A stretch of 64,000 nt of DNA, from the NCBI GenBank assembly GCA_016235055.1, contig JACRMK010000066.1:3728-67727 (forward strand), written 5' to 3'. The DNA is from Chloroflexota bacterium (GTDB lineage: Bacteria; Chloroflexota; Anaerolineae; JACRMK01). The notes under the pieces were generated by a model. That model ran no database searches. It was not told the DNA's origin and saw nothing but the letters and a program-made list of their open reading frames with translations. This document shows, piece by piece, positions 5,328 to 49,260 of the stretch. Every line of letters starts with the position of its first letter. Within the stretch, counting starts at the first letter, position 1. The position numbers and the translations under genes are program-made.

Positions 5328-5401
5328 GCGCCCGTAGCTCAGTTGGATAGAGCGTTGGGTTGCGGACCCAAAGGCCACAGATTCGAGTTCTGTCGGGCGC
5401 A
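5328..5401 (+). tRNA. tRNA-Arg. Anticodon loop reads TTGCGGA, so the anticodon is GCG; this needs tRNAscan confirmation.
   Basis: It is 74 nt with a perfect 7-bp acceptor stem GCGCCCG/CGGGCGC, a D-arm GCTCAGTTGGATAGAGC (Arg-like), an anticodon stem TTGGG/CCCAA, and a T-arm ACAGA-TTCGAGT-TCTGT. There is no encoded CCA. Confidence 0.8.
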
Positions 5402-18757: not shown

Positions 18758-20209
18758 ATGCCCCCCACCCGCACCCTCATCAAGGCTTCCCACATCATCG
18801 CCTATGACGGCAAGCGCCACCGCCACCTCAAGGACGGCGTCGTCGTGATCGAAGGCGACCGCATCATCCACGTCGGCAAAACGTGGACCGGCGCCGCCGA
18901 CGTGACGATCGACGCCGCCGGCCGCGTGGTGACGCCCGGCATGATCAACACACACACGCACCTGAGCGAGTCGCCGCTCGATCGCTCGCTCGTCGAGGAC
19001 ACCGGCAAGCGCAACTTCTACAACAGCGCACTATTCGATATGCTGCCCGGCCGCAGCGGAGCCGAGGACGAGGAGATGATGCAGATCTGCCTCGACTTCT
19101 CGTTCGCCGAACTCTTGCAGACCGGCACGACGACCGTCGTCGAGATGGGGCCAAAGGACCTGTACGACTACACCGCCGACACCGCCGCGCGCTACGGCGT
19201 CCGCGTTTACGTCGGCATGGGCTACCGTTCCGGCCGCTGGTACAGCGACGACGGCAAGGCGGTCAAGTATGAGTGGAACGAAGCGCAAGGCATACGCGAC
19301 ATGGACGACGGCGTCGCGTGGCTGGAGAAGAACCACGGCACGCGCGGCGGCCTGGTCAACGCCCTGCTGGCCCCGCGCCAGGTGGACACCTGCTCGGCAG
19401 CGCTGCTCAAGCGCACGCGCGAGGCGGCCAACCGGCTGAAGGCGCCGGTCACCCTGCACACCTCGCAGTCAGTGGTCGAGTTCCAGGAGATGATCCGCCG
19501 CAACGGCTGCACGCCGATCGAGTGGCTGCGCGACATCGGCTTCCTCGGCCCGGATGTATTGCTCGGCCATGCCATTATCATCAGCGGCCATTCGTGGGCC
19601 AACTACGCCGGCGACGACCTCGGCATCATGGCGTCAACCGGCGTGTCGGTCGCGCACGCGCCCTGGGTGTTCGTGCGGCGCGGCGTGACGATGGAGTCGT
19701 TCTATAAGTACATGCAGGCCGGCATCAACATGACGCTCGGCACCGACAGCGCGCCGCAGAACATGATCGAGTCGCTGCGCTACGCCAGCATCTTCGCCAA
19801 GCTGATCGAGCGGCAGACCGAGATCATGCGCGCCTCACACGTCTTCGACGCGGCGACGCTGGGCGGCGCGCGGGCGCTCGGCCGCGACGACCTCGGGCGG
19901 ATCGCCCCCGGCGCGAAGGCCGACCTGCTGATCTGGGAGGGCGCGAGCCACTCGATGGCCCCGCTGCGCGACCCGATCCGCAACATCGTCTATAATTCAC
20001 AGGCAAGCGACATCCGCACCACGATCGTCAATGGCCGCGTCGTCATGCATGACGGCGTGGTGGTCGGCGCGCCGGACATGCGGGCGCTGGCGCAGCGCAT
20101 GCAGGCTGCCGGCGAGCGCATGTGGCCGGCGATGCAGAAGGGCGACTGGGGCCACCGCACCGTCGACCAGATGTCGCCGATGAGCTACGCTGAGTGGGAC
20201 GGCGCGTGA
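18758..20209 (+). CDS. amidohydrolase-superfamily metal-dependent hydrolase (chlorohydrolase/aminohydrolase TRZ/ATZ-like)
   Basis: INTHTHLSESP (HxH metal site), a later HTSQS motif, and a C-terminal composite β-sandwich domain. The start ATG at 18758 is preceded by GAAAGGAA. Confidence 0.8.
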   Translation: MPPTRTLIKASHIIAYDGKRHRHLKDGVVVIEGDRIIHVGKTWTGAADVTIDAAGRVVTPGMINTHTHLSESPLDRSLVEDTGKRNFYNSALFDMLPGRSGAEDEEMMQICLDFSFAELLQTGTTTVVEMGPKDLYDYTADTAARYGVRVYVGMGYRSGRWYSDDGKAVKYEWNEAQGIRDMDDGVAWLEKNHGTRGGLVNALLAPRQVDTCSAALLKRTREAANRLKAPVTLHTSQSVVEFQEMIRRNGCTPIEWLRDIGFLGPDVLLGHAIIISGHSWANYAGDDLGIMASTGVSVAHAPWVFVRRGVTMESFYKYMQAGINMTLGTDSAPQNMIESLRYASIFAKLIERQTEIMRASHVFDAATLGGARALGRDDLGRIAPGAKADLLIWEGASHSMAPLRDPIRNIVYNSQASDIRTTIVNGRVVMHDGVVVGAPDMRALAQRMQAAGERMWPAMQKGDWGHRTVDQMSPMSYAEWDGA

Positions 20210-20210
20210 C

Positions 20211-20490
20211 AAGATGACACGATGACAAGATGACAAGATGACCGGATGACAAGGCGCCTTGGTGACAGGGTGACACAAGAGATCACAGAGTCGCCAGTCC
20301 AATGGCTTGTCATCCTGAGCGCGAAGGCAAGACGCTGTGCTTTTGGGGCGGTGCGCGCGCGAAGGATCTCGAATCTGTGATCTAATGTGACTAGGTGAGC
20401 ATCAGGCTATCGCTGGCGCCCCGTTTCTTGACGGGCATCGTCACCTTGTCATCCTGTCATCCTGTCATCTTGTCTTCTTGTCATTCTCTC
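20211..20490. repeat. composite intergenic element: long imperfect inverted repeats of GATGACAA/GG units flanking one GTCATCCTGAGCGCGAAGGC…GCGCGCGAAGGATCTCGAATCTG module
   Basis: The left arm at ~20211-20285 is the reverse complement of the right arm at ~20441-20487. The core module is at 20309-20378. All of this is seen directly. Confidence 0.6.
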
Positions 20491-20514
20491 GCCTTGCTCT
20501 AACATGGAGACCCG

Positions 20515-26562: not shown

Positions 26563-26780
26563 TCTACCGCAGAGGACGCGGAGAACGCAGAAAAGGGGCT
26601 AGCATTGTCGTAACGCGTGCGCGCCTGAAAAGGGTTGTCATGCTGAGCGCGGAGGCAAGACCGGCGGCGTACAACCCGCCGGTGGCGCGAAGCATCTTGT
26701 ATGCCGCAATTCAGATGCTTCGCGCGTGAGGCGTGCCATAGGCCGATCGTGCGACCTTCGCGTTCAGCATGACATTTCTA
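26563..26780. repeat. palindromic copy of the GTCATCCTGAGCG-type module family (variant GTCATGCTGAGCGCGGAGGC … GCGCGAAGCATCTTG … CAGATGCTTCGCGC … inverted partial copy)
   Basis: A purine-rich half-arm CCGCAGAGGACGCGGAGAACGCAGAAAAGG precedes it. An inverted partial copy ATGTCATGCTGAACGCGAAGG lies ~120 bp downstream. Confidence 0.5.
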
Positions 26781-26818
26781 GCGAGCATGGCTCGCTCAAT
26801 CCGAATTGCGATGGCACC

Positions 26819-27121
26819 ATGAGAGACGGAACACGTTACCACGCGCAATACCCGGTTTCGGCCTACACGTTTCCACGCGAAGCGCACATTCATGCTGTGC
26901 AATTTGACGCGGAATACATCCACGTCGATTTGACCGACGGTCGCCGTATCTCTATGCCGCTTTGGTGGATACCGACACTCTTCAATGCGCCAGCCGAAGA
27001 GCGCGAGAAATACGAGATTGACCGCAGTCGAAGCATGCTCGTCTGGAATCCGGCGCATTGCAGTATCAACGACGAGTTGCGCATCATAGACTACCTCGAG
27101 CCAGCGCGCGGTACAGAATAG
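26819..27121 (+). CDS. DUF2442-like small protein
   Basis: …DGRRISMPLWWIPTLFNAPAEEREKYEI… resembles the DUF2442 pattern. The start is uncertain. The upstream part of the track ORF is the repeat element, not coding. Confidence 0.5.
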   Translation: MRDGTRYHAQYPVSAYTFPREAHIHAVQFDAEYIHVDLTDGRRISMPLWWIPTLFNAPAEEREKYEIDRSRSMLVWNPAHCSINDELRIIDYLEPARGTE

Positions 27122-27157
27122 CAGGTGGCTACACCTACCGGCCGCACGGAATATCGG

Positions 27158-27200
27158 AAAGGCCCTCCGGGTTGTCGAAACCCAGAGGGCCTTTCTTGTG
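27158..27200 (+). terminator. hairpin terminator after the DUF2442-like gene
   Basis: A 10-bp stem AAAGGCCCTC/GAGGGCCTTT is followed by CTTGTGATT. Confidence 0.5.
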
Positions 27201-35129: not shown

Positions 35130-35370
35130 CGCCATCCTGAGCGTGAAGGCAGCACCGCGACTTTCAGCCGCGTCACGCGCGCGAAGGAGCCGAGCACCAC
35201 GCGCCGGGTTGTCATCCTGAGCGCGAAAGCAGCACGACACACTTACCAACACGCCATGCGCGCGAAGGACCTAAAATCGTCGCAGTCAAGCACCACACTG
35301 AGTAGAACTGGTTTGCAGCCATGCGCAGCTACTACGTCTACATCATGACCAACCCGCCGCGCGCCATCGT
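35130..35370. repeat. two tandem partial copies of the mini-element end. The second copy includes the GIY-YIG 5' UTR and the first ~17 codons.
   Basis: Module copies start at 35130 and 35211. A stub ATGCGCAGCTACTACGTCTACATCATGACCAACCCGCCG at 35321 diverges at the next module. Confidence 0.6.
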
Positions 35371-35878
35371 GTCATCCTGAGCGCGAAGGCAACACCTTGT
35401 TTTACACATCCGCCACGCGCGCGAAGGACCTAAAATCTTCTCAGCCAAGCACCACACTGAGTAGAATTAGCTTGCAGCCATGCGCAACTACTACGTCTAC
35501 ATTATGACCAACCCGCCGCATACGACGCTGTATGTTGGTATGACGAACGACCTGAAGCGCCGGATCAGCGAGCACAAGGGCAAACTCATCAAGGGTTATA
35601 CGAACGCGTACAACGCGACCTACCTGGTTCACTACGAGATTGCCGAGGACGCTGCAACGGCGATCGCGCGCGAGAAACAGATCAAAAGGTGGCTGCGAGC
35701 AAAGAAGATCGCCCTGATCGAATCGAACAATCCGGAGTGGAAGGATTTGAGCGTCGAGTGGCTGGACGATGAAGGCTGAGCCCGTTACGGGAAGATTCGG
35801 CCATTCGCAGATTTCAGGTCCTTCGCGCGCGAGGCGTTCTTGAACGGCAGCGCGTTGCCTTCGCGCTCAGGATGACAG
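35371..35878. mobile_element. ~510-bp mini-element: ~65-75-bp terminal inverted repeats (GTCATCCTGAGCGCGAAGGC-N27-CGCGCGAAGGACCTAAAATC) flanking a GIY-YIG nuclease gene
   Basis: The left end is at 35371-35445. The right end at ~35815-35878 is its reverse complement, with a different 27-nt internal segment. Confidence 0.55.
35480..35779 (+). CDS. GIY-YIG nuclease family protein (COG2827/YhbQ-like URI domain, ~99 aa)
   Basis: YYVYIMTNPPHTTLYVGMTNDLKRRISEH is the GIY…YIG…R…E signature. Confidence 0.85.
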   Translation: MRNYYVYIMTNPPHTTLYVGMTNDLKRRISEHKGKLIKGYTNAYNATYLVHYEIAEDAATAIAREKQIKRWLRAKKIALIESNNPEWKDLSVEWLDDEG

Positions 35879-48832: not shown

Positions 48833-48871
48833 CAGCCCTCCGGGTCAACCCCGCGAGGGCTGTTGTTCTTT
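48833..48871 (+). terminator. intrinsic terminator after typA
   Basis: Stem CAGCCCTC/GAGGGCTG with a 14-nt loop, followed by TTGTTCTTT. Confidence 0.6.
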
Positions 48872-49260
48872 AGCCTGTCATTCTGAGAATATCCATACGG
48901 CCCCACGGTATGCGATGCGGCAGAAACTTAAGCATGGCCTATGCGAGTCGTCATTCCGGCGAAAGCCGGAATCCAGGCGCGCGCATCACGGCCTGTAAGC
49001 GCGCCAGATGTCGGCGTGGATGCCGGCTAACGACATGCCGGCATGACGAATTGGAGTGTGCGATCATGCCCTCAGTGGCGATGAAGTTTCTGAGCAGCGC
49101 AAAAGCATGGCCTCCTGAATCCGGTGCACTTCGCGCGCGAAGGATCTCGAATCTGCAACGGCCATGGCATCTCCGCACCTCGCTGCGCCACAATCGAGAT
49201 GCTTCGCGCATGAAACACACCTGATTCTCTCTGTGCCTCCGTGCCTCTGTGGTTTGCGCT
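48870..49260. repeat. ~390-bp block of degenerate GTCAT(T/C)C(T/C)GAG / CGCGCGAAGGATCTCGAATCTG / GATGCTTCGCGC modules
   Basis: GTCATTCTGAGAAT…, GTCGTCATTCCGGCGAAAGCCGGAATCC, an inverted CACTCCAATTCGTCATGCC, and CTTCGCGCGCGAAGGATCTCGAATCTGCAACGG (near-identical to 20351-20378). Confidence 0.5.

Follow-up and report, generated by a model that had tools for sequence, protein, structure and literature searches.

The Ssn proteins are single-domain GIY-YIG nucleases of about 94 residues (CDD cd10448) that cut only single-stranded DNA (ssDNA), and do so site-specifically, a few nucleotides 5′ of a directional hairpin repeat (Chenal et al. 2025, Nat Commun, PMC11893778). Known as NTS in Neisseria (CGTCATTCCCGCGMAVGCGGGAATCYRG) and more generally as SRM, for Ssn-related motif, this repeat flanks the ssn gene and also occurs dispersed, with copy numbers reaching into the hundreds (PMC11893778). 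Literature searches on cd10448/COG2827, on the motif sequence and for follow-up work found nothing beyond this report. Here, we describe a repeat in a metagenome-assembled genome (MAG) of a Chloroflexota bacterium (assembly GCA_016235055.1), within a 64,000-nucleotide stretch of contig JACRMK010000066.1 (positions 3,728 to 67,727; hereafter the window, in whose own numbering positions are given). The repeat is a bipartite module of ~65 to 80 nt in which two conserved boxes, box A (GTCATCCTGAGCGCGAAGGC) and box B (CGCGCGAAGGAYC, CGCGCGAAGGAyC), enclose a variable core. The feature is real and largely explained: It is an extended variant of the recently described Ssn/SRM system, not a new kind of system. 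We consider it very likely that the module is an extended SRM, an ssDNA directional hairpin that serves as the binding and cleavage signal of a GIY-YIG nuclease encoded at 35480–35779.

The gene for this nuclease had been missed in a sequence-only reading of the window that first drew attention to the repeat. Two inverted copies of the module, at 35371(+) and 35876(−), bracket the gene on both sides, and the gene ties the repeat to the Ssn/SRM system. The cassette comprises the following features, where L132 denotes a related ssn locus that is described below:

35131–35194, plus strand: module 1, located upstream of ssn; it has no tail and a degenerate head (GCCAT), and its core corresponds to L132 209–272 as positional ortholog (77% identical).
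35211–35284, plus strand: module 2, which starts duplicated unit 1 (module, leader and truncated ssn 5′ end).
35321–35359, plus strand: ssn 5′-end fragment (ATG and 12 codons, MRSYYVYIMTNPP), duplicated and cut off by the next unit.
35371–35441, plus strand: module 3, the left inverted flank of ssn.
35438–35467, plus strand: promoter-like site (TTCTCA-18 nt-TAGAAT), a consensus match only, in the leader that connects module 3 to ssn.
35480–35779, plus strand: ssn gene, encoding a 99-residue single-domain GIY-YIG nuclease; the only copy in the window.
35803–35876, minus strand: module 4, the right inverted flank of ssn; its core is the positional ortholog of L132 680–618 (69% identical).

The encoded protein matches the GIY-YIG domain PF01541 over residues 3–76 (E = 7.5e-17), carries no second domain and, at 99 residues, has the length of a single-domain Ssn (about 94 to 100 residues). 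A tblastn search with this protein in a 7.3-Gb plasmid collection, which includes two Neisseria gonorrhoeae chromosomes labelled plasmids, returned an N. gonorrhoeae locus at E = 1e-19. The matching open reading frame (ORF) sits among seven exact NTS repeats, which is why we take it to be the ssnA ortholog. In a direct BLASTP comparison with this gonococcal protein, which was picked by its NTS context and is not NMV_0044 itself, the window protein showed 48% identity over 91 residues at E = 9e-30, where the published homology threshold for Ssn is E < 1e-10 to Neisseria SsnA, and the GIY, YIG, Arg, His, Glu and Asn positions of the two proteins align. Among solved structures, only distant proteins of the sister family UPF0213 match (PDB 1zg2, E = 0.0066). 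On sequence grounds, the 99-residue protein is a member of the Ssn family.

An ortholog with 85% identity occurs on L132 in the same neighborhood, between an isochorismatase-family gene and a cyclase gene, and the layout is also the same, with a module(+) at 209, the gene at 284–583 and a module(−) at 680. The module content differs: There are three modules upstream of ssn in the window versus one in L132, which has an extra module downstream at 728. The three upstream copies had been read as a tandem series at 35130–35445. Their number stands, but at 35131–35441 they form no simple tandem array: Both copy 2 and copy 3 are followed by the leader and the first 13 ssn codons. The underlying 160-bp duplication, of module, leader and first 13 ssn codons, lies within 35195–35520.

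The module is dispersed beyond the cassette, as the sequence-only reading had proposed: Together with those at ssn, nine copies, of which seven are full and two partial, are spread over four intergenic regions within the 64 kb. Box A finds seven matches in the window at ≤3 mismatches versus 0.01 expected from shuffles (20309+, 26637+, 26773−, 35131+, 35211+, 35371+ and 35876−), and box B follows at a constant offset of 47 to 48 nt after box A in every copy. On its own, box B is not enriched (16 matches found at ≤2 mismatches in the window versus 17 expected), and significance is limited to the combination of the two boxes. A profile built from 24 aligned copies (7 from the window, 3 from L132, 1 from a Dehalococcoidia MAG, L021, and 13 from metagenome contigs) recovered from the 64 kb the seven full copies, the partial copies 49096–49157(+) and 49240–49187(−), and nothing else. 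All copies are intergenic, with genes for amidohydrolases, an aldo/keto reductase, an isochorismatase-family protein, a cyclase, BipA and a glyoxalase as neighbors. They fall into two subclasses by the sequence of an outer stem (stem 1, see below), ATCCT...AGGAT versus ATGCT...AGCAT. The copies outside the cassette are:

20309–20385, plus strand: solo module, with box A at 20309–20328, core at 20329–20355, box B at 20356–20368 and tail CTCGAATCTGTGATCTA to ~20385.
20312–20316 with 20363–20367, and 20319–20323 with 20356–20360, plus strand: predicted hairpin base of the solo module, with GA/GA at 20317–18 and 20361–62.
26637–26713, plus strand: ATGCT...AGCAT module, left half of a tail-to-tail doublet that encloses no gene; the core folds into a perfect 8-bp hairpin.
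26700–26773, minus strand: ATGCT...AGCAT module, right half of the doublet 26637–26773.
49078–49157, plus strand: variant-head module (GAAGTTTCTGAGCAGCGCAAAAGC ... CGCGCGAAGGATCTCGAATCTG); the same variant head occurs in L123 and L125.
49187–49240, minus strand: 5′-truncated module (core, then GCGCGAAGCATCTCGATTGTG), tail-to-tail with the copy at 49078–49157.

Between copies, the boxes have a mean pairwise identity of 0.86 to 0.91 and the cores, of fixed length (27 to 28 nt), one of 0.32, which agrees with the initial description of conserved flanks around a variable core. At both 20361 and 49139 the tail reads GAAGGATCTCGAATCTG, a variant of which occurs at 35824(−), and a downstream box shared by the regions of 20365 and 49140 had accordingly been seen correctly. 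The suspicion that small ORFs called across the module are artefacts of the repeat was likewise well founded; the box A 19-mer also occurs by coincidence in real VILSAKD-coding genes of other genomes. At the solo module, the tail CTGTGATCT (20370–20389) is complementary to 20274–20293, just upstream of the head of the same module; this could form an outer stem or be the tail remnant of a lost inverted partner.

The two boxes had been described as partial direct repeats of each other, and GCGCGAAGG is indeed present in both. In view of folding and covariation, however, they are better understood as arms of a single hairpin, with box A as the 5′ arm and box B as the 3′ arm. From the 5′ end, the module consists of a flank TGTC, stem 1 (ATCCT/AGGAT), a tandem G-A/G-A mismatch (a 2×2 internal loop) and stem 2 (GCGCG/CGCGC), beyond which come an optional GGC/GCC pairing, ~22 nt of free apical sequence and, after the returning arm, a 3′ tail C-T-n-n-AAyCTG. 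DNA folding gave the same base structure for six of the seven window copies. In the 24-copy alignment, 91% of the cells are paired, versus 23 to 54% when the partner is slid by one to three columns, and pairs covary at positions that the search pattern used for the collection had left free: Pair 10-64 is CG in 15 copies and GC in 9 with none unpaired, and pair 15-59 is GC in 21 and AT in 2. The TGTCAT head is conserved in the aligned copies, so that the hairpin is directional with a conserved 5′ flank.

That the boxes resemble direct repeats is due to the self-complementary stem 2 and probably also to the descent of the element, which probably arose from a short form, GTCATCCTGAGCGCGAAGGAyC, by duplication of the loop and 3′ arm around an insert. 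Among the matches listed in a genome scan with the box A 19-mer, the unsplit short form appeared in Acidobacteria (L055, L090, L099 and L100), often as inverted doublets, and the bipartite module in the Dehalococcoidia MAG (L021), while most of the listed matches were coincidental coding sequence (VILSAKD/VMLSAED; Streptomyces, Myxococcota and others). In two short-form relatives, L133 1870 and L147 1493, the hairpin tip reads GCGAAGC. Hirao and colleagues reportedly described the heptamer d(GCGAAGC) as a DNA mini-hairpin of exceptional stability; if this property holds, such tips would be consistent with a structure at the DNA rather than the RNA level.

Within this hairpin, the core is the unconstrained apical part. 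It is semi-conserved at its two ends (GCA at the start, CGCC before box B), and its own folding is strong in 26637, L127 and L124, absent in 35211 and over the set weak or inconsistent (mean z −0.85). The sequence-only reading had implied a spacer-like or actively diversified core and suggested comparing the cores with each other, with phage or plasmid sequences and with nearby genes. This idea is not supported: The cores match the rest of the window no more often than shuffled cores do and have no match in 50,697 phage records. The most similar core pairs of the whole set are instead the positional orthologs shared by the window and L132 (0.77 and 0.69, versus a median of 0.37), of which the 0.77 pair sits inside a collinear alignment that is 82% identical overall. 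Since positional orthologs keep 69 to 77% identity and are the most similar pairs, we conclude that the cores are passed down and diverge at a normal pace, without being newly generated or hypermutated. One comparison fits this less smoothly. The duplicated units upstream of ssn (35195–35360 and 35355–35520) are 93% identical (115/124) in head, box B, leader and gene 5′ end but 52% identical (14/27) in the core (Fisher p = 2e-6), a contrast that is imperfectly explained and that we attribute to recombination or template switching at the identical boxes. A freely drifting tip agrees with the published loop tolerance of SsnA, for which loop identity is dispensable in vitro, complementary or non-complementary extensions are tolerated at the loop position, and a hairpin split into two oligonucleotides still works (PMC11893778).

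The association of ssn with such repeats extends well beyond this lineage. We examined eight further loci from six homologs with 62 to 71% identity (L133, L134, L136–L140 and L147; from Chloroflexota MAGs, a Thermodesulfobacteriota MAG and metagenome contigs) together with a Planktothrix plasmid (L142, NZ_LR882964.1). All of them are flanked by repeats of the motif class TGTCATyCTGAG...GAAGrATCT, which was the only motif looked for in L142 and L147. At the homolog loci, short forms with an 8- to 11-nt loop and extended forms with a 30- to 75-nt insert often stand side by side, and one orthologous site carries the short form in L137 and the extended form in L138. Because the homologs carry the same motif class, unmatched by the published SRM pattern at the loci on which it was run (L133, L134 and L136–L140), the bipartite module is one lineage of a broad class of Ssn-associated repeats outside that pattern. 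Some of the homologs lie near restriction or defense genes, namely between MmeI and the DISARM gene drmA, beside a type I HsdM and a Fic gene, or near an N6/N4 methyltransferase (seen in L142, L139/L140 and L136), which could hint at a defense-related role for some Ssn proteins. A cyclase gene beside ssn in homologs of 65% identity suggested synteny, but the two cyclases are just 25% identical and their adjacency to ssn is coincidental.

By homology with the characterized nuclease, the protein would bind the folded top strand of the module via the TGTC flank, the stem base and the tail, and would nick ssDNA a few nucleotides 5′ of the head, on one strand only. Its substrate would be ssDNA as exposed in replication, repair, transformation or conjugation. 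If, as we suppose, the nuclease reads only the flanks and the stem base, the hairpin tip would for that reason be free to drift and could be swapped by recombination between identical boxes. The gene-less doublets (26637–26773 and ~49078–49240) relate to the cassette as REPINs do to RAYT genes. We infer that this Ssn cleaves the module, and the cut position, the biological role and the means of dispersal are to be read in the same conditional sense.

A number of observations weigh against this explanation. The bipartite module never matches the published SRM pattern, HGTCWYN(0-2)YYVSBRHN(0-5)WNVSBRGN(0-2)RNCYNB; in the window, only two other elements do:

48949–48976, plus strand: canonical short SRM hairpin CGTCATTCCGGCGAAAGCCGGAATCCAG, matching the published pattern and nearly a Neisseria NTS.
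49016–49048, minus strand: canonical SRM hairpin CGTCATGCCGGCATGTCGTTAGCCGGCATCCAC, matching the published pattern.

The resident Ssn could act on these two canonical SRMs instead, and further ssn paralogs may exist outside the 64 kb. The published pattern also finds no match at seven of the eight other ssn loci (L132–L134 and L136–L140), with none on L133, L134 and L136–L140. In the 17 aligned copies from outside the window, the conservation of the boxes was partly imposed by the search pattern. Folding energies of the whole module are no better than those of shuffles (z ~0 for most copies, in DNA of 65% GC), so that the structural argument rests on covariation, which may itself reflect just one or two evolutionary events separating the two subfamilies. 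Lastly, the strict length of 27 to 28 nt of an otherwise random core is not accounted for by simple drift.

The presence of canonical SRMs in the window also speaks for the Ssn/SRM explanation. The two hairpins lie in a block at 48870–49260 that had been recorded as a degenerate block of the repeat. Partial modules are indeed present there, but the block is made up of several different elements, including these hairpins. A minimal head-plus-hairpin, GTCATTCTGAGAATATCC, with an ATTC/GAAT stem and a 3-nt loop adjoins them at 48877–48894, and the block thus holds at least three SRM types. A canonical SRM (CCGTCATTCCGGCGAACGCCGGAATCCAG) also occurs at L144 4723–4750. It is 96% identical to 48949–48976, the two loci are not homologous, and this lineage thus has both types of SRM.

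Among the alternatives, the one that survives best is that the ssn cassette is an insertion sequence (IS)-like mobile element with the modules as its ends. The GIY-YIG protein would then be an ssDNA cut-and-paste or copy enzyme that also spreads the gene-less doublets, in the manner of miniature inverted-repeat transposable elements (MITEs) or REPINs. This is compatible with the Ssn explanation, to which it adds a mechanism of dispersal, and we regard it as possible, if unlikely. The inverted modules that bracket the gene would be its ends, and the gene-less pairs 26637(+)/26773(−) and ~49078(+)/49240(−) show the same tail-to-tail geometry as the ssn flanks. The differing module content of the window and L132, the partial duplication of module, leader and gene 5′ end, and the occurrence of module copies in unrelated flanks on 11 metagenome contigs all speak for mobility, and Chenal et al. 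themselves remarked on the IS-like layout of NTS-ssnA-NTS (PMC11893778). In this sense, the thought that the motif might be part of a longer known IS end holds halfway: The cassette that the module flanks in inverted orientation is IS-like, yet belongs to no catalogued IS family.

Against mobility, inspection revealed a target-site duplication or a conserved insertion site at no copy, and the bracketed gene, for all its inverted ends, has no transposase domain. We know of no GIY-YIG transposase that has been demonstrated in bacteria. The near-random cores of paralogous copies indicate that most copies are old and not recently transposed. A clean empty site was not found either. The sole comparison is with L144, the closest available relative of the aldo/keto reductase upstream of the 26637 doublet: Between the aldo/keto reductase and D-serine-dehydratase-like genes, the window (26617–27157) has ~540 bases more than L144 (3359–3464), and this extra block contains the module doublet as well as a DUF2442 ORF (26819–27121, PF10387, E = 1.9e-9). 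A bidirectional terminator hairpin at 27160–27195 is common to both. As L144 misses the whole 540-nt block and the downstream regions are not alignable, the comparison gave no readable insertion boundary, and we discarded it as an empty-site test for this doublet.

A stronger version of the same idea, in which ssn and the extended hairpins form a self-propagating ssDNA mobile system that is driven by the GIY-YIG nuclease and has no catalogued bacterial counterpart, appears less probable still, and we mention it as a speculation with a slim chance. The boxes would then be sites of both cleavage and recombination, the cores would be exchanged as cassettes, and arrays of heads would be scars of cutting. 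Such arrays occur around the solo module:

20207–20253, minus strand: inverted array of ~6 copies of the head 8-mer, forming with 20440–20496 a 57-nt inverted repeat around the solo module.
20447–20484, plus strand: tandem array of ~5 copies of the 8-mer TGTCATCC, the module head alone.

Head-only tandem arrays also adjoin full repeats elsewhere (L136 137–230, L137 2368–2440(−), L139 1768–1810, and L142 700–760 and 1335–1400), with array units of 21 to 24 nt (head plus upstream flank) in other phyla. To our knowledge, no description of such arrays has been published. Repeated rounds of cutting and repair at the head may have left them as scars. The footprints of a self-propagating system would be these cross-phyla head arrays, the contrast of 52% versus 93% identity in the duplicated units, and the short/extended polymorphism at a single site.

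The three remaining alternatives are all unlikely. That the modules act mainly in RNA, as stabilizing hairpins of 3′ untranslated regions, small RNAs or terminators, with the nuclease adjacency being incidental, has little probability in our view. Each solo copy follows a plus-strand gene in the same orientation, and the conserved hairpin includes several G-T(U) pairs. However, doublets and gene flanks show modules in both orientations, terminator-like T runs were not found, and the same motif class flanks ssn homologs across phyla; moreover, Neisseria SsnA does not bind RNA (PMC11893778). A search of Rfam 15 gave only a tRNA at the gathering threshold and nothing meaningful on the module regions even at a permissive E ≤ 10. 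The tRNA gene (5328–5401, RF00005, 70.6 bits) is unrelated to the repeat.

Less plausible again is a repetitive extragenic palindrome (REP) or bacterial interspersed mosaic element moved by a RAYT (HUH Y1) transposase whose gene lies elsewhere in the genome. An imperfect palindrome that is dispersed between genes, often in inverted doublets, would suit it, but the bracketed gene encodes a GIY-YIG protein and not a Y1 transposase (the remaining window was not fully annotated), the head is TGTCAT as in NTS/SRM and not of the GTAG type of REPs, and the motif class tracks ssn homologs in other phyla; the early remark that this is no ordinary REP element was apt. Just as improbable is a core that is an acquired or actively diversified cassette (spacer-like, attC-like or like a diversity-generating retroelement), be it a store of foreign sequence or a hypermutated segment: It would account for conserved boxes at fixed spacing around a near-random core and for the divergence of the duplicated units, but the latter is attributable to recombination at identical boxes, the orthologous cores are inherited, the cores lack foreign matches, each unit has just two boxes, unlike a CRISPR-like spacer array, and the scanned flanking genes (metabolic or housekeeping, the remaining window being unannotated) include no cas, reverse-transcriptase or integrase gene.

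These results extend the Ssn/SRM system, now one year old, to the Chloroflexota. As the class of Ssn repeats of the form TGTCATyCTGAG...GAAGrATCT escapes the published pattern, published repeat censuses probably underestimate the number of such repeats. The extended form is the natural counterpart of the loop tolerance seen in vitro, which makes it relevant to the design of programmable ssDNA cutters, and the module accounts for spurious small ORFs (with “VILSAKDL”-type peptides) in high-GC MAGs.

Compared with known systems, the module shares with the Correia elements and dRS3 clusters of Neisseria the abundance of intergenic inverted repeats, dRS3 being the palindromic core of NTS; Correia elements, however, are about 100 to 150 bp long, show TA duplications and have no associated nuclease gene, whereas the module is tied to ssn. 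Integron attC sites, which are recognized as folded ssDNA, similarly place conserved paired basal boxes around a highly variable center, but the module lacks an integrase, a cassette array, the R/L box consensus and the signature of extrahelical bases. REP/REPIN elements with their RAYT genes resemble it in the dispersed intergenic hairpins, often in inverted doublets, in the bracketing of a single-copy enzyme gene and in a presumed ssDNA substrate; they differ in the fold of the enzyme (HUH Y1 versus GIY-YIG) and in the head sequence, and the module offers no evidence of transposition. The closest match is Ssn with NTS/SRM (PMC11893778). The module departs from these repeats in its hairpin of about 60 nt (versus about 28 nt), its two-tier stem with a tandem G-A/G-A mismatch, its 22-nt variable tip of fixed length and its lack of fit to the published pattern, and its host is a Chloroflexota MAG. 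It has in common with them a small single-domain GIY-YIG protein, 48% identical to a Neisseria ssnA ortholog, whose gene lies between hairpin repeats that recur in other intergenic regions, and a directional repeat with a 5′ GTCAT head (here TGTCAT), an A-T closing pair, a 3′ ATC(T) tail and an unconstrained loop sequence.

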